Assembly (NCBI GenBank): GCA_030295235.1
Contig: AP026128.1
Location: 1,364,001 to 1,414,756, forward strand
Source of the DNA: Fistulifera solaris
Lineage: Eukaryota
Direction of reading: 5' to 3'
DNA length: 50,756 bases
The translations under genes and the position numbers were made by a program. Shown here piece after piece: positions 140-29,548 of this stretch; within the stretch, counting starts at the first letter, position 1, and every line of letters starts with the position of its first letter. Under the pieces are notes generated by a model. The model was given only the letters and a program-made list of their open reading frames with translations, was not told the DNA's origin and ran no database searches.

Positions 140-833
140 TTACCATGCTCGCTGACCTTGAGACGCCGCTACGTAAACTGGCTCGGGCATAGGAACTCCC
201 TGCGGTTCCGAACCTTTCGTTTGCGATTGAGGGCCTTTGTAGGGCAGGAAGTTGGGACCTTTTAACTTGTTTTCACTCTCTTGTTTCGACGAAGCCGAAA
301 GAGCATCCAAGTAACTCAGATACATGGCAGCTGCTTCCGCCTTTGACTCGATTGGCTCTCCCCTGCGCAGGAGGCAAGCTAGCAAAGATTTCTTGTTTAC
401 GGCGTTCCGCCATCGAGGGAGTCCCGATGAGCCAGTCATCTCCTCTCTTGTGAATGACAGGTGCATACGTTCCGATTTGAACCGTCTCCAAAACGTCGGC
501 AGGTAGCAACCACGTTGGAGGTTTGTAAGGGGAATCAGCCATAGCCAAAAGTCGCAACATGTTGGTAACGGCGATAGAAGGATAAATTCGAGGAGGGCCG
601 TCGTGCGTTCGTCGTCCATCTTTATCGGATCGGCCGATTTTGTGAGAGGTAATAACATCGGCGGGATAGAAAGAAGGATTCTTGGAAGATCTCTCATAGT
701 CGAAATTGTCTCCTACTTTAAGAAATTCATGTAGCGCGAACGATTTCTGCGACGATCTGATTTCCTGATTCATAAAGGCAGCAACGCTGCTAAAAGACGA
801 AACGGCGAAAGCGGTGAAAAGAAGTCGGAACAT
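140..833 (-). CDS. Motif-family protein 1: putative plastid-targeted orphan, one apparent frameshift near 360
   Basis: N-terminus MFRLLFTAFAVSSFSSVAA|FM is a signal peptide followed by F. It contains FYPADVITSHKI and LLPADVLETVQI. ORF 273..833 joins the 140..697 frame at a G-run near 360, giving the C-terminus YLSYLDALS...KGPNFLPYKGPQ, which matches the gene at 46886-48120. Confidence 0.75.
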
Positions 834-1442
834 CTTGATGATTTTCTTGATAATAACCTCGATCGATTCTTGCTGACAAGTGTTGTGAATAGCTTAATTG
901 AAGCTTGATTGCACACGCAAGAGTCTTCAACTTGTTATTGAAATAACAAAACAGGTGAACCTTTGAAAGATCTTGTGCTTGTTGGCTGCTGTCGACTGTC
1001 GATCGAAGTGCGCTTTCGTGATGCTTGCGTGATGGGTGGCCGGGTTCGCTTGCTGGATCCAAAACCGTTGCGGAGTTTCATTTTATTCAGAAATCGAAGC
1101 AGATGTTGCTAGGAACGAAACGTGTTCCGTCTACTCATTTTGAGTGAGGTTAGTTGCACCGGTACTGCAAGACGTAATTTACTTAACGGACTTAAGTCGG
1201 TCGCTGAAAACGACTTGATTCAAATGTGTGACGTGTGACGACGTGTGACACGCCACAGGGAATAAGGAATCATCATCCGTGAGCAACTTCAAAAACTCCG
1301 GATCCTACAAGCTAAGGTGCGTTCTATATTCCTTTAAAAACTTGTTTCATTCTACTGCAGTTTACGCAACAATCAACGTATAAAAAGTAGCCTAGATATG
1401 TAATTTAAATGCTCGACCATTTAACCAACTCATGGTAAAAGC

Positions 1443-3621
1443 TCATTGCCGATCCTGCAACAGTAGTTCCTTCAGAGTGAATAAGGCCATCTCTCGAACC
1501 TTTGTTGATGTTAGCTTGTCTTTTTCTGTTTCGTCCTCTTCATTGTCTGGTGTTTCGACTTTTAACAGAGCGATGTCTTGCGTCTCACTCGCACTCAGTT
1601 GTTCGTTTGTATCCAATGATTCGCTTTTATCCGTCGGTTCGCTGAGGCCGTTGCTCGAACTTTTAGCAACTTCGGCGACATTTTGAACGGAATCATCTTC
1701 TGTGACTCCAAAAGAATGTCCAAGAGTTTCTCTGTCGAAGGTGTGGCACTGTCACTCTTACCGTTGTGTAAACTTGTCACATCATCAACCGTGCGTTCCC
1801 CGTGATGACGATCCCCATTGACAAATGATGTTCCTTCTACCCCATTCAGCTTAGCAAGAACGGAAGAAGGATCGGCGAGATATTGACTGACCGTCTCGTC
1901 CGTCAACTGATCAGAACCATCGGGGCTCCCTGTAAACAAGTATTGCAAAAGTTCCTTAGTTGATGATTTGGCATTGATGGGTGCCGTGGATTCCATCGTT
2001 GTCTGATCTGAAACGCTGGGGAACTCTTGGGTGTCGGAAGAGATTTGGATGTCGTTCACATCGTCGGCGCCTGTTACTAAACTTGGTTGAGCAACATCAG
2101 AAGTGGAAGCGAGTTGGTCTTCCGGCTCGCCCGCATTATGATCTCCATTCAGGTGGACGCCTGATTCTAATTGTAGATGCTCCGCAATCGTTTCGACGTC
2201 AGCACTCGTTAACCCATTAGTGTGATCAGTTTCCGTTGAAATCGCTTCAGCTTTGTCATCAAACGCAGCCAGGTCGTGTTCTCCATTAACGCTGGTTGAT
2301 TCCATCGTTTCCTGTTCCGGTTCGTAACCTTCCACTACCGAAGGCTCAGAAAACGACGACTCCGTTGTTTTTAGATCCGCAATTTCCTCTACCTGATCTG
2401 CCTCTGTTATCGGTAAACTCGCCATTGACTCAGAGCTGACCTCATTTATTGCTGCATCTACCAACAAATCTTCCTCGTCCGTTACTGATGGAATTGCTTC
2501 GTTGTCCACGAATGTAGGGTTTTGTCCATCAAGCTGAGCTGCTTGAGCGTCATCAGAGCTGAGAGCGACATAGTCTTCAATTGTTTCCATTGTCGTTGGG
2601 TCGGTATTCAAGTTCATCTGCGCTGTCTCTAGATCAATAGACTCTACTCCTTCACCATTGACTGCCAAAGATGTCGAACGAAGACCTTGCACATCATTTT
2701 CATGCAATAAATTGTCGTCGCTCGACTCCATCAATGTGTTGTCCGAGATTGAAGACGATGATTCCTCCTCGTGGTGTGCCCCGTTGACACCATTGATAGA
2801 CGGTTCTTCTTTATCATCCTCTGTGACTTGCATTTCCGTGTTCTCCGTCAATGGCTTTCGAAATCCGTGACGATTGCGTGCCTCTTCTTGCTCATTCATG
2901 CGATCACGCCAGAACTGTACCTGAATGTCACCGACTACAGGTTGCTTCGAGAATGAGTTCCTTGTCGAAACCGTAGGGACAGGTACCGATTGTTGTTGTT
3001 TCGAGAGAGCATCCGTCGTCACAACGTCGCCGGCGTGTTCCTCAAGTGCAGCTTGGTCGCTTGCTACCGACTCGGAACTTGTTTCCGGTAACTCCTGAAT
3101 GTTTTCTTCGCTTATGTTTGCATGAAAAACAGAACTACTTGCTTGTTCCGTAGAAAACGCCGGTCGAAACCCTTTTTATTGCGCTCTTCTTCTTGCGCCG
3201 TCATGCGATCTCGCCAAAATAGAATGTTACGATCGTCTACCGAGGTAGCGGGCACAGAAGGACGCTGTGGAGCCGAAGGTCGTAGAGCACTCGGATGAGT
3301 CGTCGGGGCGGGAGGCCTGGAAACACTTGCCGCAGCTGAAATTAGAAACATGTCATCCTGATCGCTCGGCAAAGAAATTGCGGCAGTCGGTTCTTCAGGA
3401 GGTGTTGGGGGAACTGAAGACTGAAACGGCTGCACAATAAACGGCTGCGCAGTAGTAGGTTCCCAAGAAGGCTTCTTGAAAACATCTGCGGGCATGAGAT
3501 AATCTGGATCGTTTACAGCAGACGTTTTTACGGATCGAATTGACATTCGATGCGGACGAACAATCCAAGCATCTGTTGCAGTAAACACAAAGAATGAAAC
3601 TACTACAGATCGAATAATCAT
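1443..3621 (-). CDS. Motif-family protein 2: acidic low-complexity protein, apparent frameshifts near 3167 and 1712
   Basis: MIIRSVVVSFFVFTATDA|WIV, then YLMPADVF. Two copies of FWRDRMxxQEExRNxxGF, one in ORF 3112..3621 and one in 1595..3022. Restoring one base in each T-run gives a continuous reading GFRPAFSTEQ...ILFGVTEDD...LLQDRQ*, with the stop at 1443-1445. Confidence 0.75.
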
Positions 3622-3983
3622 GTTGACTTGATTTTTAGAGAATGAAAGGACTGAAATGGGATAAAACGACGTAATAAGTATCCAAGAGGAGAAACAAGAA
3701 GTCGCGTGCCCAAAGATTGCAATGCGTTCCTTTTTATTGTTGCAGAAAAAAGGTGCAGTTTTTGTTTTTGTTGGGGAATTTTCGGCTGTGGATTACGTTG
3801 AAGTGACGTCATGCTGCAAACGTCATCCACTCCCACGGATGACTTCAGATGAGGGACCCAGAGGACCGGAGCATCACGAACAGACTGCTAAGTCAGTTTC
3901 ATAGATTATGCCATGCTAAAACTCAACTACGTCAACCTAGCAATGTATTCTCACACTCATACGCACAAGCAAACAATATATAA

Positions 3984-4778
3984 CTACCTTACTTTCTTCC
4001 TTTTCGAGACGAGGGTGAATTGTTTTTCTTCCGACGGCTCGACTTGGCATTCTGCAGAGTCCTTGGTGTCCGTGGATTGCTTTATGGATGTGTCCTTGAT
4101 GTCGACAAGTTGCTTTTTAGATCTCCAGTGTGCATCCCTTCTTGCCGCTTCGTCCCATCGAAGCAATTCTTCTTTTGAAAAGCTTCTTTCTCTACCAGAC
4201 GCTCAAGTCTCTTTTGTTCAACAAGTCGCGCTGCTTCAGTCCATCGATCCATTTCGGCTTGTTGAAATGCAACTTGCTCGGGAGTCAATTCACGTGGCTC
4301 CGCTGTAGAAGTCGCTGCAGCTGCTGGTTGATAATTGACCGGGTAACTCACTGGAGGGGGAAATGGTTTGACGCCAACCACGAACGCCGACTTCGTCAGC
4401 CGGGTGTCCTCGTGTGACTGTTGATGCTGGTACTACTCGTGGCGTTGCAGGGACAGGTGGCGAAATAATCGCTTCTCGTTGCAGTGATGCAGAAGGGTCA
4501 ATGAGTTCTCCACGTGCCGTAAAAGGTTCTGTTGTCGACTGGTTGTTGTCCGACGAAGAAGAGCGACCAGCTGCTGTGGGATTGCTGTCATAATTTGAAT
4601 AAGTGATGCCGCTCACAGGTGCGCCTGTTCGACTAATAACATCGGCGGGCAGAAAGTGTGAATCAGAATGGAAGATACGAGTGTTCCGCCGATTCGTTGA
4701 TTGATTGGAGACAGTAATCCAGGCGCTTGTTGTTGACAGACAACAGATCGCAGCGAGTGATGCCGGTCGAATTTTCAT
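3984..4778 (-). CDS. Motif-family protein 3, two apparent frameshifts
   Basis: MKIRPASLAAICCLSTTSA|WIT, then HFLPADVIS. ORF fragments 4290..4784, 4082..4381 and 3984..4166 overlap and read on as a Pro-rich segment followed by two RWxEAA helices. Confidence 0.7.
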
Positions 4779-5930
4779 TTGCACTCTTCTGCTTGATCAG
4801 GTTATTTTCGATAATAGTTTCTTACTTTTTCAATGCTTCGTCCTTTAGTGCATCGATTGCACGAAATAAAGCGAGAAGAGGATGCTAATTCCTGAAGTTG
4901 TTTGCCCTTCAATAAGTCGAAATTATTTTTTTTTCTGCGGTTGTCTTTCTTTCCTTGGCATTTTCATTTTTGCAGACGTCAGTGAGCACTTCCTTCGAGA
5001 GTAGGCAACCATCCGGGACTGAATTCCCGATCAGTCGTCGGAATTTCGTCCGGACGAGTTTGCATTTATCCGAAAAATATCCAGAAATAAGTTCTCTACT
5101 GTAAAGCGTTGACAATCATCTGTCATCTGTCATCACTTTCCTGACAGCTTCGACCTGAAACTTGGAAACAGTTGAAGGCAATAACGCTTCCAATGTCTAC
5201 GCGCATTCAGCGTTGCCGCAGTAGGAATTTTATCGCAGTAGAGGGACCCGGATATGGCTATGTTGACCGGATACCATTAGTCGCTAGTAGTCGGTAATTT
5301 TTGCGGCACGGGTCAAAGAACACCGGTACCGCGTCCTTGTTCGATTTTGTTCTAGGCATTGCTTTGCACCTAACGTCGGGATAAATACTTCTTCGCTGCA
5401 CGCCAAAATTATACTCCGAAAAATGAGTAAGGATTCCAGAATTTCTGGAATTCGCACAAACAGGCTATAATTCTCAAAACCACTAGTTCCCGAATAGCAG
5501 GAACGTCCACAGCATTTTACATGATCCAATACAGCGATTCGAGAATATCTGGAACGTCCACGAAACGTCTGTTTTTGACTCGAAACAACTGGTTCAGAAT
5601 TTCTGGGTGACACGAAACCGCGAATTTCAGGCGCATTGATTTGGAGTACATTCTTTGCCGCGCAACATACTGAATGTCAAAAATTGTTAATCACGAACAT
5701 GTCAAAGAAAGCAGTTACTTTTCTACATTTACAGAAGACAATCTTCAATAACATAAAAGGTTTCGGCTACTTATTTAATTGGCAACGACCGAGAGAGTTC
5801 AACGAGTGGGCCTTGTCTATATTCTTGCCAGTGGCCGAGGATGCTTGTGCCTATTACTAATCGTATCAAGTTACATACACTCTTTGTCATTCGAGTCCGG
5901 TTATTGTGTGCCAGTATTTCCATCATTGTT

Positions 5931-7091
5931 TTATTCCAACTTCTCACCATCGGAAGGAGCCTCGTCGCTCCACTCTAATCCGTTGAGATCAATGCCTTCG
6001 TCATCTGGCCGATGGACGAAACAGTCGTCTTTCTTCGCTCTCCGAAGTGCGTCGCGTTTCGCAGCTTCCTCCCACCGCGCAAGCTCGCCATCTATAAATC
6101 CTATTTTGTCTGACAACGATTCGTTTTCATCAACACCTTCGTTCTTCACCTCTGGTGCGCCGTCTCGTAGCGACGCATTCAGTTCACTGTCAATTTCAAT
6201 AACCTCATTCTCGATCGTTTCACCAGTAGGTTTCGCCGAGTCTTCGGGTGTAGTTGTCGAACTGCTTTCATTACTTGTGAAAAAAGTTTCTTGTTGCTGA
6301 AATAGTTCCTTTTTGGCTTGTTCGACTTGCAGATTCCTCTGCGACTTTTCTTCCGCGAACTCGGCAATATTACCGTGCAGAATATGTTGCCCCGCATCTA
6401 AAAATGACATCATCTGGTACTCTGGGTACGGAAGAGGAATGTCTGGTATCGTAGTTGTGCTTGTCGTCGATGTTGTCGGTAGAGAATCGACCTCGGGGAC
6501 CGGTGCATCTGGTTCTTTGGGGAGTGTCGGTGGTTGTAGTTGAGGTGTCAGAGACGGCGTAATTGCTTCTGGGGGCGAAGTTTTCGGTGGAAGGGATTCA
6601 CCGGATGAAATCGGATAGTATGGAATGCGAATTTTTGTGGAAACGTCGGGATGCATCACATTGGAATTAGAAGGCACTGGCGAAAATGATGACAACGCTG
6701 GCTTTGGAGCTAGATTGCTCGAGGGTGAAGACCATGAAGGGCGCCCCGGTGAAGGCGACGAAAGCGCTGACTTGCGAGATAGCATAGACCCTGGTTCATT
6801 GTAGTACTGATTCGTTGAAGATTGCTGAGACGACACAGAAGGCACTTTTTCTGGCTTGAGCGTCGATGACCAGGACGCCGGATAGTAGCCCGAACGATGC
6901 GTTCTAGAAAGGTTCTCGAGCCATTGCGGACTACCCAAGATTTCCGGCGCTAGATCTGAGTAAAGGTCATCTTGAGCTCCCGATGCACCGAATTGTCGTG
7001 CCGTTGACGAACGTCGAATATAAGAGCGTGTAACCCATGCTTCTGACACAGAAAGCAGGCATACAGAGACTGCAGCAGCTCTCAAAAACAT
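5931..7091 (-). CDS. Motif-family protein 4: Ser/Pro-rich then acidic, intact ORF
   Basis: Likely start at 7091, MFLRAAAVSVCLLSVSEA|WVT. Contains MHPDVSTKIRI and ELARWEEAAKRDALRRAKK. Confidence 0.8.
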   Translation of the reverse strand: MFLRAAAVSVCLLSVSEAWVTRSYIRRSSTARQFGASGAQDDLYSDLAPEILGSPQWLENLSRTHRSGYYPASWSSTLKPEKVPSVSSQQSSTNQYYNEPGSMLSRKSALSSPSPGRPSWSSPSSNLAPKPALSSFSPVPSNSNVMHPDVSTKIRIPYYPISSGESLPPKTSPPEAITPSLTPQLQPPTLPKEPDAPVPEVDSLPTTSTTSTTTIPDIPLPYPEYQMMSFLDAGQHILHGNIAEFAEEKSQRNLQVEQAKKELFQQQETFFTSNESSSTTTPEDSAKPTGETIENEVIEIDSELNASLRDGAPEVKNEGVDENESLSDKIGFIDGELARWEEAAKRDALRRAKKDDCFVHRPDDEGIDLNGLEWSDEAPSDGEKLE

Positions 7092-8585
7092 TGTTTTCCA
7101 GTTCTGAAATAATAGGAATGATTTCGTTCTCAAGCGAATCGTATTGTGAACAAAGTATCTTTCAATTTGTTGTGATTGAGGCGACAATATTTTAAAGATG
7201 AGAGCGTTCCGATTTCTTCTGGTTGTTGTTTAAGATACCGTTCTTTCGATGTTGCACGAGTTTTCTAATCGAAACAAGTCAGGCTGCGAGAGATAAAGCT
7301 CAACGAGTCAAGATCTTTGTCACAAATAATACGATACACTACTTTTGTTCTGAAATCAACAGAAGCAAAGAAAAAAGGAAACAGCCGCGGTTTTCCTTGC
7401 GTCCTTGAGCGCGCGCGCCGCGTACGCTCGTGACAGCTGTTGTGTTACGTCATTACCACGTCACATGCAACGGCTCCAGTAAGGACCAAAGAGAAGAGAG
7501 AGAGGGTGCGACTTGAACTTCACTGCCAAACCCCGAACATCATGCGAGCTATAAACCGAACTGTACATTCGACGATCGACACTTCTCGTTCTAGGTTAGA
7601 GCTCGGGTTGTGGGTAAAACTCCAGGTTGCTAAGGGCTGGTTACACGCATGGACGCCCTGTCGCGATAGCACCGTGAAAGTACACTTTGTGCTACACTAA
7701 GCGTCGGAACGAAAATTTCACCATGGCAAAATACCGCATAAATCCAGGCTAAACATGGTGGGGCACCGATCAATTAAATAAAGCTCGATTGATATTCTTT
7801 TACTTTTATTGTATAATTAAGGAGAGGCGGTTCCAAAGGATGTTTAATTTTCATCAGAGGCGATCGAATTGCGGAGAAAAGGCGTGATTTGATTCTGCCC
7901 GTGCTTTTTCACCATAGAAAATCAACTCGAAAGCGAGTATCTCAGCAACAGAAGCGTCAAAATTGTGGATATCGCACAATAAGCCTTCTATAGCTAATAG
8001 CTATTAGATGGCCCAATTCCCACAATTTTGCAGGTCCCTGAACGAAGTTACAGCCTCATGAATCCTATTTCGCCATGGTCGTCGTGTTTTTATCGCGGTG
8101 GAGGTTAATCAATCAACGATAATTCGACTATACGCGTATAATGTAGTTACGTATAAATTCGTACCATTTGAACGAGGGGACGGTCGAAAAAGTAACCAGC
8201 CCTTACGGCTGTGGAGCAAGGGACGGATACAAGTACTGTACTAGTAATACGAAAAGCCTAGAATTTGCTTGAGCTTGGAGAGTCGCTCTGAAAATAGCAT
8301 CAAGCAAGTTGAGATGGACCAAAGCGAATTTAGTTGGGCAAAACAAAAAAGATTTAGTAGTTTCTCGTAGAATTCTGTGCACGAAAAGTGAATAGATACC
8401 ATGCATTACCATTACACTGCTCAATGAATAACAAGAATAGTGATAATATAAATGCGTTTTCCCATTTGGAAGAACATTGTTGCTGTGCGTTTTTGGAATT
8501 GATGTCAATCAGTGTCTTCGCAAGTCGCAAGCAGCTTGTATAATATTATAGCCCCAACAAGTTGGTAACAGAACAAAACTTCGCC

Positions 8586-11165
8586 TTATTCGTTCTTGCT
8601 TTCCTTAGCTTTTTTCTTTGCCAATTCGGCCAGCCCGTTGCCATCGTCAACAATTTCTGCGTCAATAATTCCGTTAACTGACTTGCCCTGAAGTAACGCC
8701 TCTTTTTTCTTTTGATCTCCTCCAGCTTTGCTTTCTGTTTTTGAAGAGCTGCTTCGGCTTCTTTCTTTATTTCGGCTTCTTCGCGAGCTATTTCCGCCAA
8801 GATTGCGGCTTCTTTCTCAGCTGCTTCCTTCCTTATACGCGCTTCTGCTTGAAGTCTTGCCGCTTCTTTCAAAGCAGCATCAACCTTGTTTTCACTATCA
8901 TCTGTAACACCCTCCGCTGTTTCCTTCTTTACGGGTTCGTCTGTCTTTTTCTGACTTGCCTTTTCCGCCCACCGAGCTTGTTGTGCTAATCGCTCTTCTT
9001 CAGCTTTGCGCGCTTCTTCTGCCCACCGAGCTTGTTCCGCTTTACGAGCTTCTTCAGCTTTCTTTGATTCTTCCAACCATCGAGCCTGTTCTGCTTGTCG
9101 AGCCTCTTCGGCTTTACGAGATTCCTCCGCCCAACGAAGTTGCTCCGCTTGGCGGGCTTCTTCTGCTTTTCGGGCTTCTTCCAGCCAGCGCGCATGTTCT
9201 GCTTTGCGTGCTTCTTCCGCCCAACGAGCTTGTTCAGCTATTCGATTCTCCTCTGCTTTCCGAGCCTCTTGTTCCATCCGGGCTATTTCTGCAAGACGGG
9301 CTTCTTCTGCTTTTCGAGCCTGTTCGACAAGTCGCGCTTCTTCAGCTTTTCGTGCTTCCTCTACAAGTCGTGCTTGTTTCGCAGCTTCCCGAGCCTCTTC
9401 GGCGAGTCGGGTTTGCTCGGCCAAACGCGCTTCTTCCGCTAGGCGAGCTTCCTCTGCTAAACGGGCCTGTTCAAGTCTACGCGCTTCTTCAGCTTTTCTT
9501 GCCTCCTCCGCAAGGCGCATTTCCTCGGCGATACGAGCCGCCTCTGCTATACGAGCTTCCTCCGCCAAACGCGCCTGTTCAGCCAATCTTGCTTGCTCCG
9601 CCAAACGAGCTTCTTCTGCCTTACGTGCCTCTTCCGCCAAACGTGCTTCTTCTGCTTTACGCGCCTCTTCCGCTAAACGTGCTTCCTCTGCAAGTCGTGC
9701 TTGCTCCGCCAAACGAGCTTCTTCCGCTTTACGCGCCTCTTCCGCTAAACGAGCTTCCTCTGCAAGTCGTGCTTGCTCCGCCAAACGAGCTTCCTCTGCT
9801 TTACGTGCCTCTTCCGCCAAACGAGCTTCCTCCGCTTTACGCGCCTCTTCCGCCAAGCGAGCTTCTTCAGCTTTACGCGCTTCTTCCGCTAAACGAGCTT
9901 CTTCGGCAATTCGTGCTTCCTCTGCCTTTCGAGCCTCTTCTGCGAGACGTGCTTCTTCCAGACGAAGTGCCTCTTCTTCTTTCCGCGCTTTCTCCATGAG
10001 CTGCCTTGCCTCCTGTTCTGCTTTCTGGAGCTCCTCGTACTGCTTTTGCGCAAGTTTTGCAGTTTCTATTGCCTTTAGCGTAGCCTGGTGCGCCGCTTCA
10101 GCCGCTTCGGCTGCTTTCTTTGCGACTTCCGCCTCCTTTGTAGCTTTTGTACTAGCCAACTGTGCAGCCGCTGACATTTTTGAATGAATTGTGTCGGCAC
10201 CATTTATCGATCCCTTGATGATTTTGGAAGTAATGCGAATCTCGTCTTCGACATTCTTGCCAATGTAGTCATCGTACTGATCTGGACTAGCAGCGGGCCA
10301 TTTTCCGGTTCCCGTAGGCTTGGACGCAATCAAGGGCTTATTCTCCGGCATATCCGGTGCTCCCAAGGCCTCGCTACCCAGTTGTCGAACCCAAGTTTGA
10401 CGCGGAGCAGGTGGAGGCTGAACGCGAATTTTGTTCATGACATCTGGTTGAATGTCATCTGCAGGGGTCGCTGTGGAATAGGACCAGCTGGACGTCCACA
10501 CACTTTTCCCCATGTTTTTCCGAGTCTCCATGTATTGTTCTCTCGCAGCTTCGGCTGCTGCGTCACTGTCGAGTGCATCCGTGCCCAACTCGTTAACCCA
10601 GGTTTTCTTTCGAGGTTTCTCTTCGGCAATTCGAATACCTTTAGTGATATCAGTTCCAATCTCGTCATCGTTGTGGGACTTTTGTATGCCATGAGCTCGA
10701 CCAAACAGTCTTTGGCTCTGTTTTCGTTCGAATCACTCCTTGTTCGTCGACTTTATAAGATTGCGTCGGTGTCGCGGGCACAGGCTGATCAAATGTCCCT
10801 GGTGCTTGTTGAGTGATGCGTATTTTATTGAGGACTTCTGAGCTGAATTCATTATCAAAGGAGGAACTGGACGGCGTCGGTAGAGGATTGATAGGCGCCC
10901 CATTCTTTGGCTTTGAGTTTTCTTCTGTACTTGAATCAATTCGAATACTCCTAAGATTCTCTTTACTGATGTAATCTTTATCATTTGAAGAGGCTGACCA
11001 CGATGCTCTCGGCGATTCCTGATGCAAAAGCGCACGCGTTAAATGTTTTGTATTCGTCGAACGATGCAGCGAAGCAGGAACAAAAGCAGCTGCTCCTGGG
11101 AAAGCTTGACTGGAAGCGAACAGCGCAGCAACTACAGCAGCCGAGTATTTAAATGAAAGACCCAT
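8586..11165 (-). CDS. Motif-family protein 5 with a long (EEARKA/EEARLA)n charged helix, apparent frameshifts near 10685 and 8705
   Basis: MGLSFKYSAAVVAALFASSQA|FP. Repeated VW[ST]SSW, EVLNKIRI / DITKGIRI / PDVMNKIRV and TWVxxLGx[DE]AL. About 330 aa of 6-residue E/A/R/K repeats. An alternative frame at an A-run gives the C-terminus EKEALLQGKSVNG...KESKNE* ending at 8586. Confidence 0.8.
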
Positions 11166-13231: not shown

Positions 13232-13937
13232 AGGAAAGCGTAATTCAATACGATCCTTAATAGTCCTAAACTAAAAATAGTTGTCGAGAAAGATGCTGTG
13301 TAGGCTATTTGTGGGTGAAGGAAACTTACAAACCATTTCATGATTACAAACGGGGAATTGAATGTTGTTGGACTTAAAGGATTGACGTTAAATGTAACGC
13401 GTAGTTCTATATACGAAATTAGGCCTAAAGATTAAAATAAAAACCTTGGAAGAGAACGTTTCGCTGCAATTACCCCGACAAAGCACTTCTAATGATCACG
13501 GAATGCGTTGCCTTTGATTGATAACACATTGCAAAACTATGGACTGTGTCACATTTTTCACTTCACATGATGCACTTGCAACAAGTTGACAATGTAGACC
13601 CCAATAAAAGAGGCCGCATACAGTTTCTGAATTCAGGACAAACCGTGGCCTGTCAAAAGTAAGCAGCAGAGCCTTGTGAGAGGATATAATGTATGCTTCG
13701 TAACTGTCCAGTGCGCGAATTGCCTTTATCAGACCAGGTATATCGAAAAGCATGATTTGTATTTGTATACGGAACGGCATGAAATCAAGAGAGCAACGCA
13801 CTTATTTCGTCAGGCAAGACCTCTCTGTCTCTCTGGGCCTCTCACATCACACAATGTGATGTACCCAGTAAATTCCATTCCAAACTCCTCGAACAAGCAC
13901 AAAAACACTCACCCTTATCGGTCTCATTCTGTCGCCA

Positions 13938-14162
13938 TTATCCTTGACGCTTCACTTTTGCACTCGCTCCTTGTCCAGCACCTCCAGAGGCATATTTTGA
14001 ATCATCTCGATATCCTAACTGTTTGCGCAATTGTACCTTACGCAGTTGAAACCATCTTCGCAAGCCTACAGCATTCGGGCTGTAGAGTACTATGCGCAAT
14101 ATTATGAAGGCCACAATCAACAGCAAGGGCCACCAAGATCCTTCGGAGGATGTCATGTTCAT
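13938..14162 (-). CDS. Possible small single-pass membrane protein (74 aa)
   Basis: ATG start, one hydrophobic segment (WWPLLLIVAFIILRIVLY), then a basic, Gly-rich tail. No family recognised. Confidence 0.45.
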   Translation of the reverse strand: MNMTSSEGSWWPLLLIVAFIILRIVLYSPNAVGLRRWFQLRKVQLRKQLGYRDDSKYASGGAGQGASAKVKRQG

Positions 14163-14647
14163 ATTGTTTGTAAAAGATCGAACTATGAGAGAGTCGTTTT
14201 ATTTCACAGAATGAACAAATGCAGCACATACTTTCATTATTATTCTATTGTTCGTCTTTTGCCTTTTGCCTTTCACAAGGGATAAGGGTGAACAGGGTTG
14301 TTCTACAGCGCGGCGCGCCGACCCACGTCACCTTACAATTCCTAAATAAATTTTTATTAGGTGGCTTTCAAGTTCAGTATTATGTAACTAGTCCTTGTGA
14401 GCGCGCCAGGCGGACATTTACGAGACACCAGACTACAAATTATTAGATAGTAACGCGCCGACACCCCCACAAACTTTTGATCGATCATCGAGCGACAATC
14501 GACACAAAATTAATGAGAAAACTGAGTTCGGTTCATCATCTTTCATCTCCCTTGCTTCTCATAATCTCTGACCATTAAAGAAAGTAAAAGACGTGAAACA
14601 AGAAATAAATTTTCATTGTCAGTCACTAAATTGAGAAAATAGAGAAA

Positions 14648-16078
14648 ATGTACTTCCGAAAGTTCGCTTTAGTGCTTCTAAGTGCATCAAGCGCCTCGGC
14701 TGCGTTCGTAGCGAGTCAACCCTCATTCGCCGATTCTTCACGTGCATCGACAGCACAAAACATGTATGCCGATGGCTTTCTTATGCCACAAGATGTCATC
14801 TCTTGGAGAGATCAACAAACAACGTCTTGTTATACCGCTCCTGTGTATGCCGATCCGAACAACTCGGTGCGTGAACCTCCCTCACCGTGGCCTGAATCGC
14901 GCGGCGATCGGCCAACACCTGCGTTCTTTGAAGAAACAAAGAAACAAGAGGACAAAAAGATTCACATGTTTGACTATTGGATGCAACCTTCGTCTTACAT
15001 GGAAGAGCTGAAGAAATCTGGCCGAAGATCTGAGTCACAATGGACTCCCGATGCCACGCCACCATTCTTTACAACCGGTTCTTTGAGCACGCCCGAGTCT
15101 CGATGGGCACGTGTCGATCCGGGCTTTACGCAATCGACTCCTTCTTTCAATCAGTACACATCTTCTTCTTATGCTACTGGGCGCTGGACTTCAATTTATG
15201 AATCCGATGCGATGAAATACCGTCAGATGCACAATTACATGGATGTCGAGGTTCAACAAGCACCTCAAGAGGCCGTTATAACCGCACCTGTCATTGAAGA
15301 GACACCCATCGCTTTGAATGAGCCGGATATTCGAGTGGAAGAACCAACGCTACAAGAAGTTTCTGCTTCAGTCAGCGAACCCGAACCGGTCTACCTTTCC
15401 GAACCAGTTATGGAGCAACCTATCGCACCGTGGAGCCAGCCGGAACCTGTAGTCGAGACGGCAAGTATTATTGAGGACATAATAATGGAAATGCCTAGTC
15501 CAGAGCCAGTGAGTACGATTTCGAAAGATCTTGCTGAAAAGATTTCCGCGTACGAGAAAAAGATCGAAGAAATGCGAGAAGTCGAAGCTGAATTCGTCGA
15601 TATTTTGAACCAGTCACGCAGTCGCTACGTCAACGACTTGAATGACATCCTGACAGTCGAATCAAGTTCGGATTATGTCGAAGAAGAAGAGTTCACCAGT
15701 GAGACCCAAAAGGAAGACGCACAACTATCTAGCAGCTTTGAAGAGCATCCTGGTGCGGAGACTTCCGTTGAATCGGCAGCAGCAACAACCACTGCCAGCT
15801 ACACCAATACCATCGATGTATTGGAAGAAGAGCTAGGCGAGGAGATCATGAGTACAATTCGTCGCGAATCTCATGTTAACACACCAGATGCTTACTTGAG
15901 CGCGGGTTCGAGTATGTACCAAAGCAGCTATTACGGTAGCCCAGGCCCGCAATATTCAACTGCAGGACGTTCTGGCCCCAACGTTTACCATAATTCCTAC
16001 CAAAACGCGGCACCCCATTACTCGAACGTGTACGATCGCCCTCTGAGCGAACGAAATCACTGGGACCGTATCTTTTAG
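14648..16078 (+). CDS. Motif-family protein 6: putative plastid-targeted disordered protein, intact ORF
   Basis: MYFRKFALVLLSASSASAA|FVA is a classic ASAF-like site. Contains GFLMPQDVIS, a Glu/Pro-rich middle, SRYVNDLNDILTVES and a Tyr-rich C-terminus. Confidence 0.85.
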   Translation: MYFRKFALVLLSASSASAAFVASQPSFADSSRASTAQNMYADGFLMPQDVISWRDQQTTSCYTAPVYADPNNSVREPPSPWPESRGDRPTPAFFEETKKQEDKKIHMFDYWMQPSSYMEELKKSGRRSESQWTPDATPPFFTTGSLSTPESRWARVDPGFTQSTPSFNQYTSSSYATGRWTSIYESDAMKYRQMHNYMDVEVQQAPQEAVITAPVIEETPIALNEPDIRVEEPTLQEVSASVSEPEPVYLSEPVMEQPIAPWSQPEPVVETASIIEDIIMEMPSPEPVSTISKDLAEKISAYEKKIEEMREVEAEFVDILNQSRSRYVNDLNDILTVESSSDYVEEEEFTSETQKEDAQLSSSFEEHPGAETSVESAAATTTASYTNTIDVLEEELGEEIMSTIRRESHVNTPDAYLSAGSSMYQSSYYGSPGPQYSTAGRSGPNVYHNSYQNAAPHYSNVYDRPLSERNHWDRIF

Positions 16079-16308
16079 GAGGTAACTCGATGCAGAAGCA
16101 TTCATCAACATCTCACCACGAACTCGGACACAGGCTGCACCCCTTTCCCAACCTAGCCGTCTAATATAATCACCAAAGCGCACAATATATTGATTCCTAA
16201 TCTACATCTGTTGATAGCTTCACTATTTTTATTTTAAAGAACTATGCTAGCAAAAGAAAATGTTGGTGAGGTTATTGACTCATGACTGAAATATTTGTGT
16301 CCATAAAG

Positions 16309-16397
16309 TAATACTATAAAGGACAAGTTTCAAAAAAAAAAAAAAAAAAATAATAACTATAAAGGACAAGTTTCAAAAAAAAAAAAAAAAAATAATA
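16309..16397 (+). repeat. Tandem duplicate of a ~22-nt unit plus a 17-19 nt A-tract
   Basis: TAAT(A)ACTATAAAGGACAAGTTTC followed by an A-run occurs twice in tandem. Confidence 0.85.
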
Positions 16398-16579
16398 AGT
16401 AAGCCGTACGGAAGACAAAGGTTCGCGAAATGGTTTGACGTCAAAGTATCATAATGTGCAACGCAAACGCTGTTTATCTGATAAGACAAATGCATCACAA
16501 CAAAGATAAACAGAGCTCAAGAATTTGGGCGAACGAACGCATCGTAGGTAACATTGCGGCGCTCAAAAGAATTTGGATT

Positions 16580-16600
16580 CATGACTGAAGTCCAGTCGTG
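16580..16600. promoter_or_regulatory. Spaced dyad CATGACTG-N5-CAGTCGTG (further copies at 16771-16791 and 22157-22177)
   Basis: Three near-identical imperfect inverted repeats with a fixed 5-nt spacer, all upstream of genes. Function is inferred only. Confidence 0.45.
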
Positions 16601-17002
16601 ACGAAATACGAAGTAAACTTTGGTCTAGACGGAGTAGTTAATACGTAGACGACGCTTCGCAGTTTTTCGACGTACAAATAATTAGGGCCGACAAAGTCTA
16701 GTCTTCAAAAAAGCAACAAAGGCAAATGAAGCTCAAGAAGAGTTAGACAAACGAACAAAGTGTGGGCAGCAATGACTGAATGTCAGTCGTGAATCATCGT
16801 TGACATTACACTTTGTATGAAAATATAGACGGCTTTCGGTAATATGTGTCTGACGGAAATGCTGTCTGACACAAAATTTTTACGCGGACTTGAATTTTAT
16901 CGGATATACATTGATGATGATGATGATGATGATGAGTCTCATTTTCCATCGTTCTAGCTTATTGTCATTCATCTTCACTTCTTTGACGATACTTAATGAA
17001 AG

Positions 17003-18613
17003 ATGCATGTTTGTTTACTAAGATTTGTGCCGGCGGTGCTGTTACTTCTTCCCTTTACGGCTTACGCTTGGATTTCACAAAGAACGACGCCACGACAACG
17101 CCTTCTCTTCAACGGATCAACAAAACAAAGATCAAGCAATCCTCGTCTTTCCGGCGAACTACTTCCTCAGGGAATTGTTGATTCATCAACTGTGTATCGG
17201 GGTGGCCTCATTGAAAAGCCGCAATGGAACGGTGCTCCTGCTGAAGGATTTCGCGAAGCTCAGTCGATCCAAAATATGTATTATGCTCTATCTACTTTTC
17301 CAGAAAAAGAGACAAAGGACGAACGCGATGAAATAGAGACCAACACACCTTCTTTGTTGGAAGAAAAGAATATTCTTGACGATGAAAACGAGGTTCCTTC
17401 GGAAGCCAGCGAGCTAGATCACACTGATACATTTACGGAGGAAACAATCGAAGCCGTTGTGAAAGATGACTCTTTTGCAACGAAAATAACTGACTTATTC
17501 GAAACAAATGATCAAATTCTGAGTGCCTCAGATGAACTTTTCGCCGAGGAAGACGGCAGCCAAGTTAGTGGAGAAACTACGACGGACGAAAGTGCGGAAG
17601 AGGATGAAATATTCTATGATTACTCTCTGGAAAATATGGAAGCCCCATTCGAAAGCACTGATGGTGACCCAATAGCTATAAACGACAGCCGAGATCTATA
17701 TGTTGCAAGAACGGAGGAAATGGATGAAACAGAGGATGATAGAGGGATTGACGAAAGTCTTTTATCGCCTGACGAAAGCGGAGCAATCGATACAGAATCA
17801 GAAGACGGCGGTCTGCAGCTCTTATCGTTACAATCGATTACTGACAACGAAGTTGCTGATGAGATACAGACAAGCATGGAAGCAGAAGAAGATACGATAA
17901 CATCGGCTGAAAGCGACTTGTTGACAGAAGCCGAAAATGTAGATGGGACATTCCGAGACGAATTAGTCGAGGAACTTGGAGCAACGCTGACGGAGGACGC
18001 AAAAGAGCATGAAATTGTTAACGGCTCACGTGACGCTATTGTAGAGAGCTCGATAAATGAATTGACACAGCCGGAGCTAAGTGCAGAACCGATGAATCTG
18101 GAAAATCAACAGCAACTCGGTGAAGAAACAACAATACTTAGTTTGAAAGCTGATGGTCATCATGAAAGCGATTTGACATCTAGCGAATTCTTCGGTGAAA
18201 AGCAACAAAGTGTCGAATCTCGCGCAATTAGTGGCGCGTCAACATTGCAGATTGTCGAAGCTTCTACGACCATGAATTCCATTGCACTGTCGAAGAGACC
18301 ACTGAAGAGAATACCACTGTTCCAAAAGATGAATATTGACGCTGCTAAAGAGTCAGCTTTTTTACGAGTCGTTCGGAGGTATACCGAGGCGGACAAGCGC
18401 CGACGAAAACTGCTTGAAGAGCGACGAATGGCTGAGTCTATCAACGGACTTGAAGATGTAGACGCATTGAATGACCTGTTTAAGAAACTGACTTCGGCGG
18501 GTATTATTCCGAGGGTAAAAATGTATGGGAAGCGTTTTACATTGGATGATGGGACCACGGCTATAGGGAAGAGACGCAAACTATGCATTGAACTAGAATG
18601 GGAAATGGAATGA
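17003..18613 (+). CDS. Motif-family protein 7: highly acidic putative plastid protein, intact ORF
   Basis: MHVCLLRFVPAVLLLLPFTAYA|WIS. Contains SGELLPQGIV...WNGAPAEGFREAQSIQNM and C-terminal AGIIPRVKMYGKRF, both matching the neighbouring gene. Confidence 0.85.
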   Translation: MHVCLLRFVPAVLLLLPFTAYAWISQRTTPRQRLLFNGSTKQRSSNPRLSGELLPQGIVDSSTVYRGGLIEKPQWNGAPAEGFREAQSIQNMYYALSTFPEKETKDERDEIETNTPSLLEEKNILDDENEVPSEASELDHTDTFTEETIEAVVKDDSFATKITDLFETNDQILSASDELFAEEDGSQVSGETTTDESAEEDEIFYDYSLENMEAPFESTDGDPIAINDSRDLYVARTEEMDETEDDRGIDESLLSPDESGAIDTESEDGGLQLLSLQSITDNEVADEIQTSMEAEEDTITSAESDLLTEAENVDGTFRDELVEELGATLTEDAKEHEIVNGSRDAIVESSINELTQPELSAEPMNLENQQQLGEETTILSLKADGHHESDLTSSEFFGEKQQSVESRAISGASTLQIVEASTTMNSIALSKRPLKRIPLFQKMNIDAAKESAFLRVVRRYTEADKRRRKLLEERRMAESINGLEDVDALNDLFKKLTSAGIIPRVKMYGKRFTLDDGTTAIGKRRKLCIELEWEME

Positions 18614-19113
18614 ACATGGACGCTTTTGCTTTAAATTACGCTTGTGTCTCTTGCTACTTATAGGTAAAGCTAAAGTAAGTATAGTAACCTTTAATTTGTT
18701 GCTGAGACCTAATTCAAACTAGACCGGCCGAAGAGATGATAATACTTTCATTATATTATAGTGTTGGGGAGCAGCCGTAGTTTTTAACGTCGCACCGTAA
18801 TAACCACATTGAAGTTCAAATCCGCTGTTGCACACGTCACTTGGGCTATAAAAATGTGTGTAGAGGACTGTCTTGCGACCGGTTCTTTTCCGTTGACAAC
18901 AAGATCTGGATTTTGATTGGATCGTGTCGTCGTCGAACGTTGCACGCACGGAGTGCCATTTTGAGGAGTGTTGACGACGTTTGCGACATCAACACAAAAA
19001 ATGCATCTTGAAAGATTTGGCGAGTGTTTATTGCTTCATTATTGCTTCGTTTTCATTGCTTTCTGCTGTATTTGAATAAAGCAATCTCTGTCCTCAAACT
19101 ATAGCCCTAAAAA

Positions 19114-21994
19114 ATGAGCGGAATCTTTTTCCTTGTTTTGTTAAGTTGCTTCGCAGAGACACAAGGCGCTTGGGTCAGCAACAGTCCCCTTGTGTTAACG
19201 ACAACTCAATCTGTACGATGCGCCTCTCAAGCATCAAGTTACAATGATCCTTTCGCTTTTTCGGGTCAGGTCTTACCTCAGGGTATTTTAGGAATGTTTC
19301 GTGAACCGTCAACGAACAAAATGCCGTGGAAAGGATCCGGTGCTGTAGGCTTTCAAGAACCAAACGCAATTCGAGAGATGTCTATTCTCGATAGAACCTC
19401 GCCAGCTCAAGCAAAGGCAGAGACTGAAAAGAGTCAACAATTCAAACTCTCTCAGGCATCGGAGCCTACCTCAAAGAGGAGCGAATTAGTCCCTTTCTTT
19501 CAGAGATCGGATCCTAATTTCATGTCACCGGATGTCATGGCATCTGTCAGGATCAACCAACAGCAGTATCAGCTTCCTCAATTAAAAAATACGGTGTCAA
19601 GCGATTCGGCGAGCCGAAAATTGCGTGATGCTGCCATTTTGCGATTCGAATCGAGTTCTTGGGCTGCGGCAAATCTCAAATCCGAAAAAGCATCCGCGGA
19701 TGTACTCACTCGAGTCAATATCGGTATTGGTGCTCCTATTGCGGGCAAGTCATCGGCCCGTGTCGAAAATGTTACCAAAGGAACACAAGAATGGACTACG
19801 GAAAAAACGATCAAGCCGTCCAAGGATTCTGCGGATGTGCTGGTCAAAGTGCAGATTCATGATGAGATTGTGAATGCACCCGCATCACAGCGTGTCCAGG
19901 CTACAATTGCTACAAAACCGGATCAACCCGATGTAATGGATAAGGTAAACATCAACGAAGGGAAAATAGCGAATAACTCGGGTGCTACGGCCAAACCAGC
20001 AAAGGCATCCGCCGATGTGCAAACGCCTGTCAAAATTCATGAGGATGTCAAGGTCGAGAAGGTTGCGGAGCCGACCAAGGAATCGACCAGTAGCCAGTCG
20101 AAGGGAGCTGCACCATCTCCAACAGTACAAATTAATGGTGACAAACAGGATGTCGTCAAACCGTTCAATAAGAGTAACTCTCAGCCACCCATCGAGCCTA
20201 TTCTCGTCGATAAGTTACCGGAAAGCAAATACAAAAACGACTTGGATGATATTATTACTGTGGATTCACAAGTGGACACTCCTCCTACGAACACCCCATC
20301 CACCACGCAGGAGGCAACAGCAAATAATTCATCGGATTTGAAACCACCGGCCGACAAGCAGGAACCTACCGGTCCCTCTGTGCCGGTTGCAAAAACATCA
20401 GCGGAGTCTAAAGAGTTACTGAGTTCCGTTCAAATCACTAAGGATGCCAACCCTGCTCAAATTGCGAAACCAGACAAAGATTCTGCCGATGTTCTTACGT
20501 CCGTCAAGATTCATGCAGAGACAACGCCGACTCCAGTGGCTAAGCCGACAAAGGAATCTGCCGATGTCTTGACGCCCGTCAAGATTCATGCCGAAGAAAA
20601 GTCACCTCCTTTGGCAACCCCTACGAAGGAGTCTGCCGACGTTCTTACACCCGTTAAGATTCACGCTGAAAAGAAGCCGGTACAGGTAGCAACACCGCTG
20701 AAAGACTCCGCTGATGTTCTAACTCCAGTGAAAATCCACTCAGACACGAAGCCGACTTCATCATTTGCCAAACCATCTAAAGAGTCTGCTGATGTTCTCA
20801 CGCCGGTCAAAATTCACGACGATAAGCCACCCGTACGAACCGTCACAGCGGTGAAAAAGTCTGCCGATGTTCAAACTTCGGTTAAGATTCATTCAGACAA
20901 AAGACCTTCTCAAACGGCCAAACCCAGCAAGGCCTCTGCTGATGTTCAAACGCCTGTCAAAATTCACGAAGATGTAAAGCCGGCCCCAAGAGGAACGCCA
21001 CTGAAGGACTCCGCCGATGTATTAACTCATGTTAAGATTCACGCAGAAGAAAAAACCTGTCCGAGCAGTTGCGCCGGTCAAAGATTCGGCCGATGTTCTC
21101 ACGCCAGTCAAAATTCATGCAGACGAAAGGCCTAAACAGACTCCAACACCTCTGAAAGATTCTGCTGATGTTCTCACGCCCGTCAAAATTCACGCAGATG
21201 AGAAACCTGTGTTGGCGGCTACCCCGGTAAAGAAGTTAGCCGATGTTCAAACGCCAGTGAAGATTCACGCAGAAGACAAGCCGAGAAAACCTGTTACACC
21301 ACTAAAAGACTCCGCCGACGTCCAAACGCCAGTTAAAATTCATGCTGAGGAGAAACCGAGACAGACTGTTACACCGCTGAAAGACTCCGCTGATGTTCTC
21401 ACACCTGTGAAAATCCATGCAGAGGAGAAACCGAGACAGACTCTTACACCGCTGAAAGACTCTGCGGACGTCCAAACGTCTGTCAAAATTCATGCAGCAG
21501 AGAAGCCAAGACAAGCTCCTACACCGTTGAAGGACTCTGCAGATGTTCTCACGCCGGTCAAAATTCATGCTGAGACGGTATCGAAACCACTTACTAGACC
21601 TTCCAAAGATTCGGCCAATGTTCAGACTCCAGTCAAAATACATAGTGAAGACCAGTCAGCGACAAAAGAAAGTCCGACTGATTCGCACATCACCAAGTCG
21701 GCTGTAAAGTCGAAAGCGAAAAACGTAAACGGCATCAAAGACACTGCTCCTGTCACAGCAACTACGCAAGCATCATCGAGCGAATCGGCAACAACGGATG
21801 TTACTGTCGGAGGCATTCAGAACGATTCCGTCAAAGATTTGTTTGCGAGTAGCGTGATTGCAGATGTTATAACGAATGTTAAAATGTACGGGGACCGGAT
21901 ACCAGCGGCAAGCGCGGCCGAGTCAAAGTCGCAGAGCGGTCTGAAATGGAAATCCGATTTTGATCCGAATCGATGGGCCCCGCTTAGCTATTAA
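19114..21994 (+). CDS. Motif-family protein 8: multivalent repeat protein with 16 tandem K[DE]SADV[LQ]TPVKIH units, one apparent frameshift near 21052
   Basis: MSGIFFLVLLSCFAETQGA|WVS. The ~26-27 aa repeats continue unchanged from ORF 19114..21135 into 21029..21994 across an A-run. Confidence 0.88.

Positions 21995-28448: not shown

Positions 28449-29548
<1,100 letters not shown>

Follow-up and report, generated by a model that had tools for sequence, protein, structure and literature searches.

A short motif shared at different copy numbers by a cluster of predicted plastid proteins in the diatom Fistulifera solaris

Known repeat scaffolds and the Fistulifera locus

The carboxysome scaffold CsoS2 binds Rubisco and shell proteins through short repeated motifs, and the Rubisco-binding motif of green algae is built around tryptophan. 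As described for Chlamydomonas, a common Rubisco-binding motif is present in many copies in the disordered plastid scaffold EPYC1 and in one or a few copies in other proteins, with spacers that drift freely and proteins that are lineage-restricted (Meyer et al., 2020, PMC7673724). In diatoms, which are credited with about a fifth of global CO2 fixation, PYCO1 of the pennate species Phaeodactylum tricornutum is presented as the only known structural protein of the pyrenoid matrix; it is a plastid-targeted, disordered repeat protein with stickers and without homologues outside Phaeodactylum, and its authors report that, a short isoform aside, no other protein carries its small-subunit sticker (PMC10288592). 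The definition of linkers given for CsLinker and FLIPPer comprises largely disordered proteins with repeats 20-120 residues apart, and repeated structured (helical) elements are expected (PMC11570498). The available portions of the diatom pyrenoid literature report no common targeting motif.

The window analysed here, the whole stretch of 50,756 bases from Fistulifera solaris, an oil-rich diatom, contains a gene cluster with the pattern of the Chlamydomonas type: 22 copies of a motif in one protein versus one, two and three in others and one degenerate copy, a predicted common compartment, drifting spacers and lineage restriction. Unlike in the EPYC1 system, the motif has a different sequence without an aromatic residue, no helix is predicted, and the copies of the array are spaced by 25 aa instead of about 60. 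The 22-copy protein also resembles CsoS2 in being disordered, basic and multivalent, with short repeated motifs, but CsoS2 is bacterial and unrelated in sequence. With PYCO1 the protein has in common the origin in a pennate diatom, a predicted plastid location, disordered repeats with putative stickers and the restriction to its own lineage. The PYCO1 stickers KWSPR, GTGYNP and EW.SMN gave 0 matches each in the six frames of the window and, in contrast to the PYCO1 sticker, the Fistulifera motif is common to several genes. The 25-aa spacing falls inside the 20-120-residue linker criterion (PMC11570498) and is among the shortest of those in known Rubisco linkers, whereas the expected structured elements are not predicted in the array, for which the alignment is shallow.

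The window is subtelomeric, and the family genes lie side by side inside 22 kb, with a telomere repeat about 29 kb away. The cluster genes are tandem paralogues which, besides the motif, have in common the islands LPQGI, Y.NDL.DI.TV and VKMYG.R and their N-terminal architecture, so that part of the motif sharing reflects common descent and not independent use. These features would also be accounted for if the motif were a relic of paralogy, that is, the best-kept island of a fast-evolving tandem family, multiplied in one gene by slippage and maintained by a non-docking constraint. Such a constraint could be intramolecular or physicochemical, for example solubility, protease resistance or phosphorylation at T-P-x-K, a site present twice in each array unit. 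We regard this explanation as unlikely, since the core is kept in cluster proteins for which any other alignment has E>0.001, and in view of the codon data presented below. No Pfam family was found in 15 of the 16 window proteins, the single exception being a low-complexity match. Frame breaks in the cluster genes correspond to one-nucleotide differences from independent contigs: a base at 21050 in the gene at 19114-21994 is left out in contigs of runs X1 and X2, a one-nucleotide indel at 10679/10680 in the gene at 8546-11165 is seen with contigs of X1, X2 and X3, and further breaks of this kind lie at 4356, 4172 and 8709.

The motif in the 22-copy protein and in its neighbours

The multivalent gene (19114-21994, forward strand) encodes 959 aa as a single ORF when the one-nucleotide assembly error is skipped. 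Its product is GAX27520.1 (P0023), which corresponds exactly to 19114-21054 plus 21056-21994, an extra A at 21055 breaking the frame of the window. The protein combines a signal peptide and a transit-peptide-like stretch with 22 copies of [SP]-A/P-D-V-x3-V-x-[IM] and a conserved C-terminus; it contains 9.7% P, 19% S+T and 2.2% aromatic residues, and its pI is 9.0 (4.1-5.6 for most other cluster members). Five copies are dispersed over the N-terminal half (19525-20037, forward strand), namely SPDVMASVRI (19525-19554), SADVLTRVNI (19693-19722), SADVLVKVQI (19828-19857), QPDVMDKVNI (19924-19953) and SADVQTPVKI (20008-20037), four of which are matched, at the equivalent position of the distant orthologue P0007, by a copy of the strict pattern, SADVQTPVKI being the one without a clear counterpart. 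Sixteen copies form a tandem array of 25-aa (75-nt) units (20476-21679, forward strand) with the consensus K-D-S-A-D-V-[LQ]-T-P-V-K-I-H-A-E-E-K-P-x4-T-P-L, in which TRF detects a period of 75 with nucleotide matches of only 73-77%. The C-terminal copy, IADVITNVKM followed by YGDR (21857-21886, forward strand; 26.4 bits), is kept in P0005, P0006 and P0007.

GAX27520.1 is publicly named 'KRAB domain-containing zinc finger protein', and C2H2 zinc-finger proteins are indeed drawn into a profile search with E values from 5e-13 to 2e-4, because VKIHAEEKP resembles the finger linker H..IHTGEKP. That the gene encodes a zinc-finger or otherwise folded repeat protein is nevertheless extremely improbable: P0004 has 0.0% cysteine and no zinc ligand pairs, neither Pfam zf-C2H2 nor KRAB is matched, a signal peptide is present and the AlphaFold2 pLDDT remains below 50 throughout. 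The public name is wrong, and the analysis corrects this misleading annotation. The context of the motif is predicted to be disordered, with no predicted fold. AlphaFold2 assigns a pLDDT <50 to 899 of 899 residues in its model of P0006 and leaves the array devoid of helix or strand, an absence made weak by the shallow, four-sequence alignment; a single-sequence prediction for the gene at 273-833 (mean pLDDT 36.4) was uninformative. The complex predicted from four array repeats and the two-copy region of the latter gene scored 0.00, which speaks neither for nor against binding.

Across the cluster, the motif core can be written as D-V-h-x-x-[VI]-[KRNQ]-[IVM], mostly with [SP]-[AP] in front. The loose pattern [DE][VI]xxx[VI][KRQNH][IVM] matches 26 times in the six frames of the window, and all 26 matches lie in cluster genes (21 in 19114-21994, three in 8546-11165 and one each in 5931-7091 and 273-833). 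An earlier note on this DNA had described one motif used at different valencies, about 20 times in one gene. All the peptides it quoted were found in the genes stated, and its high count stands, the exact number being 22. It had also proposed scoring the other copies against shuffled sequences with a PSSM from gene 19114. When the matrix was trained on this gene only and each of the other proteins was shuffled 2000 times as background, four of the six full copies named passed at p<0.01: PADVITSHKI (19.0 bits, 0 of 2000 shuffles as high), PADVLETVQI (15.5 bits, p=0.0005), HPDVSTKIRI (13.0 bits, p=0.0075) and QPDVMNKIRV (11.0 bits, p=0.009). SSEVLNKIRI (6.2 bits, p=0.15) and GTDITKGIRI (-3.3 bits) failed; the latter is a diverged duplicate, in register with QPDVMNKIRV within an internal duplication (BLASTP E=1e-8). 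A fifth copy outside the training set, SAGIIPRVKM, scored 10.4 bits (p=0.037). The motif is non-random, and the view that a single short linear motif occurs across otherwise dissimilar, disordered proteins, with 22 copies in one gene against one, two or three elsewhere, was supported. Text searches of the literature returned no match for either the motif peptides or the F. solaris locus tags.

The low-copy neighbours are encoded on both strands. The two-copy gene (273-833, reverse strand), which probably continues to 140 in another frame, carries PADVITSHKI (636-665) and PADVLETVQI (474-503), and the one-copy gene (5931-7091, reverse strand) carries HPDVSTKIRI (6624-6653). In the three-copy gene (8546-11165, reverse strand), SSEVLNKIRI (10815-10844), GTDITKGIRI (10628-10657) and QPDVMNKIRV (10421-10450), of which only the third passes the PSSM, are followed by a long E/R/K/A-rich repeat region (approximately 8963-9995). 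A paralogue of gene 19114 (17003-18613, forward strand) has the degenerate C-terminal copy SAGIIPRVKM (18494-18523), followed by YGKR. A possible extra copy, KADVTIKVDI (44117-44146, reverse strand; 13.2 bits), is located in a neighbouring disordered gene beyond the range of the earlier note, in a frame that continues the gene at 44185-45003; the duplicated segment 43344-44075 is without it. The W-K-F-D-V-M-S-Q repeat of the gene at 41657-43354 was considered as the same motif and rejected (PSSM -0.2 and -15.8). A nearby gene contains six W-D-P-W repeats, 53-62 residues apart, and a PDB sequence search with its product gave a single chance match (E=1.2).

Constraint on the core and relatives of the family

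Positions K1, A4, V6, T8, V10, K11, I12 and H13 are invariant in all 16 array units, while the fraction of unit pairs that differ is 0.77-0.88 at positions 16, 19-22 and 25 of the spacer. Pairwise synonymous codon differences at the invariant positions (0.34-0.62) are in the same range as at spacer positions. Since the core is fixed though its codons vary like those of the spacers, the peptide itself is under purifying selection, and the motif is protected while the spacers drift. This combination of diverged spacers and eight core positions fixed despite synonymous turnover points to a constraint on a specific surface and argues against a relic of paralogy. Between homeologues, identity reaches 92% at motif positions (166/180) versus 83% elsewhere (541/654; p=0.0014), and with the distant orthologue P0007 the values are 51% and 41%, respectively (p=0.045). 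Likewise, 4 of 4 aligned sequences for the gene at 5931-7091, one of them at 67% identity, have an unchanged MHPDV.TKIRI. Copies of the strict pattern number 22 in P0004, 19 in P0005, 20 in P0006 and 8 in P0007.

Relatives were few. Homology searches returned three matches, all close, for the gene at 5931-7091, four for the C-terminal piece of gene 19114, and 0 among proteins of 392-1250 aa for the N-terminal 170 residues of the gene at 8546-10690. Orthologues of gene 14648 are 92-100% identical, too close to inform on its N-terminal element. A profile search of 1.84 billion representatives gave nine matches, two of them in the family; the other seven were four C2H2 zinc-finger proteins, one unrelated repeat protein, and P0010 and P0013, presumed unrelated by score. 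None of the 283 pattern stretches of a first metagenome scan was confirmed, a second scan returned 19 loci without any relative, most of them being bacterial ORFs or non-coding frames, and the best score in the ESM Atlas, 0.79, was in the noise range. The family thus appears to be lineage-restricted, with relatives found only in Fistulifera-like diatoms and, as these are few and close, conservation rests on a narrow clade.

Presequences, N-terminal element and putative function

Besides F, the residues W, Y and L are also accepted at position +1 after the signal peptide. A role in diatom plastid import has been described for this F (PMC4329603), and the diatom transit peptides reported as measured are 12-42 residues long, carrying Leu at -2 and Ala/Ser/Met at +1, with acidic residues thereafter (PMC3774753). 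By inspection, 8 of 8 cluster genes have W or F adjoining the predicted cut of the signal peptide, followed in 6 of 8 by an S/T/R-rich, acid-free stretch of 19-29 aa, early acidic residues being present in this region of the genes at 273-833 and 14648-16078; in gene 19114 the cut lies between A and W, and 26 residues without acidic side chains follow. The plastid-type presequences postulated earlier were therefore found by eye in every gene by the W/F rule, the acid-free stretch being clear in six, and we infer from them that the cluster proteins undergo import into the plastid. The products of the cluster, all of which have signal peptides, resemble diatom wall and adhesive proteins in being repetitive, P/S/T-rich and lineage-specific, and a motif for extracellular assembly can be envisaged in repeat proteins that are secreted or sit at the cell surface, in mucilage, in the adhesive trail or on the frustule. 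Such a location is very unlikely, as W/F at the cut and the basic, hydroxylated, acid-free stretch are hallmarks of plastid import (PMC4329603, PMC3774753), and no Cys-rich or known wall-protein domains are present.

Three further genes had been thought to carry shorter versions of the motif soon after the transit peptide: 1595-3621 (reverse strand; YLMPADVF, 3478-3498), in which the repeat FWRDRM..QEE.RN..GF occurs twice and the frame is broken near 3170; 4290-4778 (reverse strand; HFLPADVI, 4635-4655), whose extension towards 3984 is suggested by the indels at 4356 and 4172; and 14648-16078 (forward strand; FLMPQDVI, 14780-14800), which shares with gene 19114 the second island Y.NDL[ND]DI[IL]TV. 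The assignment of these versions to the full motif did not hold up, as PADVFKKPSW (3.0), PADVISRTGA (3.5) and PQDVISWRDQ (-2.4) score at PSSM background. Corresponding elements occur in gene 19114 (VLPQGIL, 19270-19290, forward strand; LPQGIL also in P0007), in its paralogue (LLPQGIV, 17159-17179) and in the one-copy gene (LAPEIL, 6936-6953). As an element in its own right it is non-random: the pattern hhP[AQE][DGE][VI]h has seven matches in the six frames of the window, all in cluster genes, six of these falling within the 3292 aa of the other signal-peptide genes versus 0.012 expected from shuffles, the p-value being inflated because the pattern was chosen after the data were seen. The short h-h-P-x-[DG]-[VI]-h is better read as a related but separate, position-fixed element at the putative junction between transit peptide and mature protein.

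The element proline lies 25-38 residues past the predicted signal-peptide cut in seven genes, and a cut in L-P-A-D between P and A would match part of the diatom transit-peptide rules (PMC3774753). Both would suit a processing signal in which h-h-P-A-D-V marks or follows the stromal cut after P, the array being a polyprotein of approximately 25-residue peptides or a protease decoy. We judge this to be decidedly improbable: the array has K-[DE]-S before A-D-V, with no hydrophobic residue at -2, just 7 of 16 units have Leu at position 25, the preferences given in PMC3774753 do not include Pro at -1, and copies are also found mid-protein and at the C-terminus.

We favour, with a probability of roughly 45%, a selected short linear sticker with a shared putative partner, in a plastid-imported disordered family composed of a 22-copy scaffold and low-copy tethered proteins. 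The core would most likely bind its partner in an extended conformation, and this partner could be either a second copy of the motif or a folded protein of the plastid. The role of multivalent scaffold would fall to the basic 959-aa protein, and the one- to three-copy proteins, most of them acidic, would attach to the same partner or network. This scaffold-and-client arrangement fits the anatomy of the cluster; binding as such, the nature of the partner and the compartment or sub-compartment are inferred. As the paralogues share other islands too, the shared motif alone does not require a shared partner.

The link of the cluster to the pyrenoid is a conjecture. The cluster may be a structural kit of the Fistulifera pyrenoid, with a 22-valent matrix linker or shell-to-matrix tether, a sticker that corresponds in diatoms to the common Rubisco-binding motif of Chlamydomonas and recruits the neighbours with one to three copies as clients, and the W-D-P-W gene as a second linker; we hold this to be quite unlikely. 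Its clients would include the protein with the charged repeat region of about 400 residues, possibly a spacer.

F. solaris is transformable, and a selected motif present in a multivalent putative scaffold and in low-valency neighbours with plastid presequences provides a cheap experimental handle, which could reveal how a diatom organises a plastid sub-compartment. If the pyrenoid conjecture were true, the motif would have no known precedent as a shared targeting motif in pyrenoids of the red lineage. Even if the partner is not Rubisco, the family represents a clean natural case of valency tuning, from 8 to 22 copies among close relatives, with selection on the sticker and not on the spacer.

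Locus and gene models

The window comes from the nuclear genome of Fistulifera solaris, a pennate diatom. Three ORFs in it match NCBI/UniRef/EukProt proteins exactly, these proteins being located on a 343,852-nt contig, and homeologous copies (FisN_23Lh011, 013 and 017) were found at 72-94% identity. Approximately 102 TTAGGG units extend from 50140 to the window end (50756), indicating a chromosome end and a subtelomeric position for this cluster of genes for disordered proteins. Intergenic DNA also contains an (AC)106 microsatellite and a 52-nt tandem repeat of 11.7 copies (28765-28976 and 29872-30476).

A frame change interrupts each of the long genes described in the earlier note. Direct reading detected an extra A at 21055, within GAAGAAAAAA|CCT, and another near 10680, within ACAAAAG; independent contigs from two or three runs have one base fewer at 21050 and 10679/10680. 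One-base differences from independent contigs were also found at 4356, 4172 and 8709, and differences of one or two bases from contigs of two to three runs at 13900 and 14307. The directly read differences sit in homopolymer runs, with false frame breaks in several genes; the break near 3170 has a homopolymer context and is absent from the contig differences displayed. Given the 1-nt contig differences, each gene model was treated as one ORF and the breaks were put down to assembly error. The 959-aa protein GAX27520.1 (P0023) is identical, letter for letter, to window positions 19114-21054 plus 21056-21994.

The full motif and selection on its core

Every peptide quoted in the earlier note was found in the window translation, and all 26 loose-pattern matches from a scan of the six frames fell within the genes it had named. 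The multivalent gene (19114-21994, forward strand), credited with about 20 copies, contains 22 of the form [SP]-A/P-D-V-x3-V-x-[IM]: a 25-residue tandem array (20476-21679) holds 16, five more are scattered over the N-terminal half, and the last is close to the C-terminus. Scores from a position-weighted matrix (PSSM) built from this gene alone were set against 2000 shuffles of every other protein, a comparison by which the earlier note had proposed to refute its own idea. The outcome was divided, since, of the six full copies that had been named, four scored above the shuffles (19.0, 15.5, 13.0 and 11.0 bits; p from <0.0005 to 0.009) and two failed, SSEVLNKIRI (6.2 bits, p = 0.15) and GTDITKGIRI (-3.3 bits). 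Nevertheless, an internal duplication of about 32-48 residues puts GTDITKGIRI in register with QPDVMNKIRV (E = 1e-8), and it is, on sequence grounds, a true, diverged copy despite its score. A fifth copy, degenerate and previously unnamed, lies at the C-terminus of the paralogue 17003-18613 (10.4 bits, p = 0.037). Outside the multivalent gene, the six-frame scan gave nine matches of at least 10 bits: the signal-peptide genes hold five in their coding frames, a disordered gene nearby holds one, and three fall elsewhere. The nearby match, KADVTIKVDI (44117-44146, reverse strand; 13.2 bits), is read in a frame extending the proline-rich gene 44185-45003, and is lost from the duplicated segment 43344-44075.

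Across the 16 tandem units, K1, A4, V6, T8, V10, K11, I12 and H13 are unvarying. Codons at these positions differ in 34-62% of unit pairs, just as spacer codons do, and the amino acids at spacer positions 16, 19-22 and 25 differ in 77-88% of pairs. The low DNA self-match of the array (only 73-77%), together with this codon turnover, shows that the repeats are old and that purifying selection, not recent duplication, has kept the core. Purifying selection on the peptide core, as read from these comparisons, is the strongest result of the analysis. Conservation in orthologues, whose absence the earlier note had named as a refutation, was also observed, with motif positions exceeding the remaining ones between homeologues (92 vs 83%, p = 0.0014) and in the distant orthologue P0007 (51 vs 41%, p = 0.045). 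Strict-pattern copies number 22, 19, 20 and 8 in P0004, P0005, P0006 and P0007, the last with two further degenerate copies. Because the motif is under selection and its valency differs among relatives, the original observation is real, and stronger than its author could have known.

Presequences and a position-fixed N-terminal element

All eight signal-peptide genes start with a hydrophobic signal peptide, after which comes W or F, and in six of them the next stretch is S/T/R-rich and free of acidic residues. By inspection, these presequences are predicted to be of the diatom bipartite plastid type, according to criteria in excerpts of two papers (PMC4329603; PMC3774753). The aromatic residue at +1 in 8/8 genes argues against a secreted, non-plastid family, which is quite improbable.

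The short N-terminal versions, which the earlier note had counted as motif copies, could not be upheld as such, their PSSM scores being at background (3.0, 3.5 and -2.4 bits). They are not random: h-h-P-[AQE]-[DGE]-[VI]-h has seven matches in six frames, all in these genes, and six element matches were found in 3292 aa against 0.012 expected, for a pattern chosen post hoc, after the data had been seen. In seven genes the proline lies 25-38 residues after the predicted signal-peptide cut. Measured diatom transit peptides, as excerpted from PMC3774753, span 12-42 residues, with Leu at -2, Ala/Ser/Met at +1 and acidic residues thereafter, so the element would lie at or just past the junction between transit peptide and mature protein. 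It partly resembles a transit-peptide cut site (L-P|A-D). A processing signal or polyprotein, improbable as an account of the motif, would suit this element more than it suits the array, in which A-D-V follows K-[DE]-S. The element is retained in both available distant orthologues (LPQGIL in P0007, L[AS]PEILG in P0002). The first full motif copy of gene 273-833 sits exactly where the element lies in the others, so the element may be a decayed first copy; as it stands, it appears as a separate, position-fixed feature.

Family range and a putative docking system

Beyond the presequence and the motif, gene-to-gene similarity is limited to a few islands (LPQGI, Y.NDL.DI.TV, VKMYG.R), and the genes are diverged tandem paralogues. 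That the motif is a relic of this paralogy, under some constraint other than docking, is rather unlikely. The Y.NDL[ND]DI[IL]TV island is found at ~15600-15660 and ~20230-20290, in the genes starting at 14648 and 19114. Other repeats include F-W-R-D-R-M..Q-E-E.R-N, twice in gene 1595-3621 (2897-2911 and 3202-3216), S-Y-L-D-S-[ML], three times in gene 39972-41441, and S-Y-L-D-A-L in an alternative frame (140-712) of gene 140-833. No Pfam domain was detected in the eight genes except a low-complexity match in gene 8546-11165, in an E/R/K/A-rich region (8963-9995, reverse strand) of ~400 residues of A-R-L-A-E-E-A-R-K-A-E-E type with 36/72/108-nt periods, which looks like a long charged helical spacer behind this gene's three motif copies. 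The AlphaFold2 model of P0006 has pLDDT <50 at 899/899 residues.

The family has a narrow range. Among 1.84 billion representatives, a profile search recovered just two members, the homeologue and a more distant diatom protein; of the other seven matches, the five inspected were C2H2 zinc-finger proteins in four cases and an unrelated repeat protein in one. No relatives were detected in two scans of metagenomes. A-D-V-x-T-x-V-K-I-H occurs there by chance in two unrelated bacterial families (L005, L010, L013, L014, L017; L015, L019), as W-E-F-A-D-V-G-T-x-V-K-I-H-V-L-E-V and Y-L-A-D-V-R-T-E-V-K-I-H. The public name of 19114-21994, 'KRAB domain-containing zinc finger protein', is wrong, since the protein lacks cysteine as well as any zinc-finger or KRAB domain; the C2H2 matches explain the name, VKIHAEEKP being a mimic of a zinc-finger linker. 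An annotated zinc finger or folded repeat has a negligible probability.

The family has the anatomy of a sticker-and-spacer system. Its constrained core, 8-13 residues long and with hydrophobics (V, h, V/I, I) placed as an extended strand would allow, is set in charged, proline-rich spacers that drift freely, with many copies in one basic protein (pI 9.0) and one to three in several acidic ones (most others, pI 4.1-5.6). The motif is read as a putative binding motif with a shared partner (probability roughly 0.45), which could be a folded plastid protein or another motif copy.

Known pyrenoid linkers are likewise plastid-targeted, disordered, repetitive and lineage-specific. This likeness makes a pyrenoid reading of the cluster attractive, as do the excerpted report that PYCO1 has no homologue beyond Phaeodactylum (PMC10288592) and the presence in the multivalent protein of two of the three features of the FLIPPer linker definition, as excerpted (PMC11570498). 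Against it, no PYCO1 stickers were found in six frames of the window and no repeated helix is predicted in the array, and the pyrenoid reading would be unlikely. A 565-aa S/T-rich disordered ORF (41657-43354, reverse strand) carries six E-T-W-D-P-W-K-F-D-V-[ML]-S-Q-T-L-G-K-S copies, 53-62 residues apart, a spacing like that typical of Rubisco linkers, with a degenerate upstream copy at 43407-43418; no PYCO1 motif occurs in it, and the PDB gave no sequence match. Unproven as it is, the scaffold-client model, in which the family members would use the motif at different valencies, offers a good working model.
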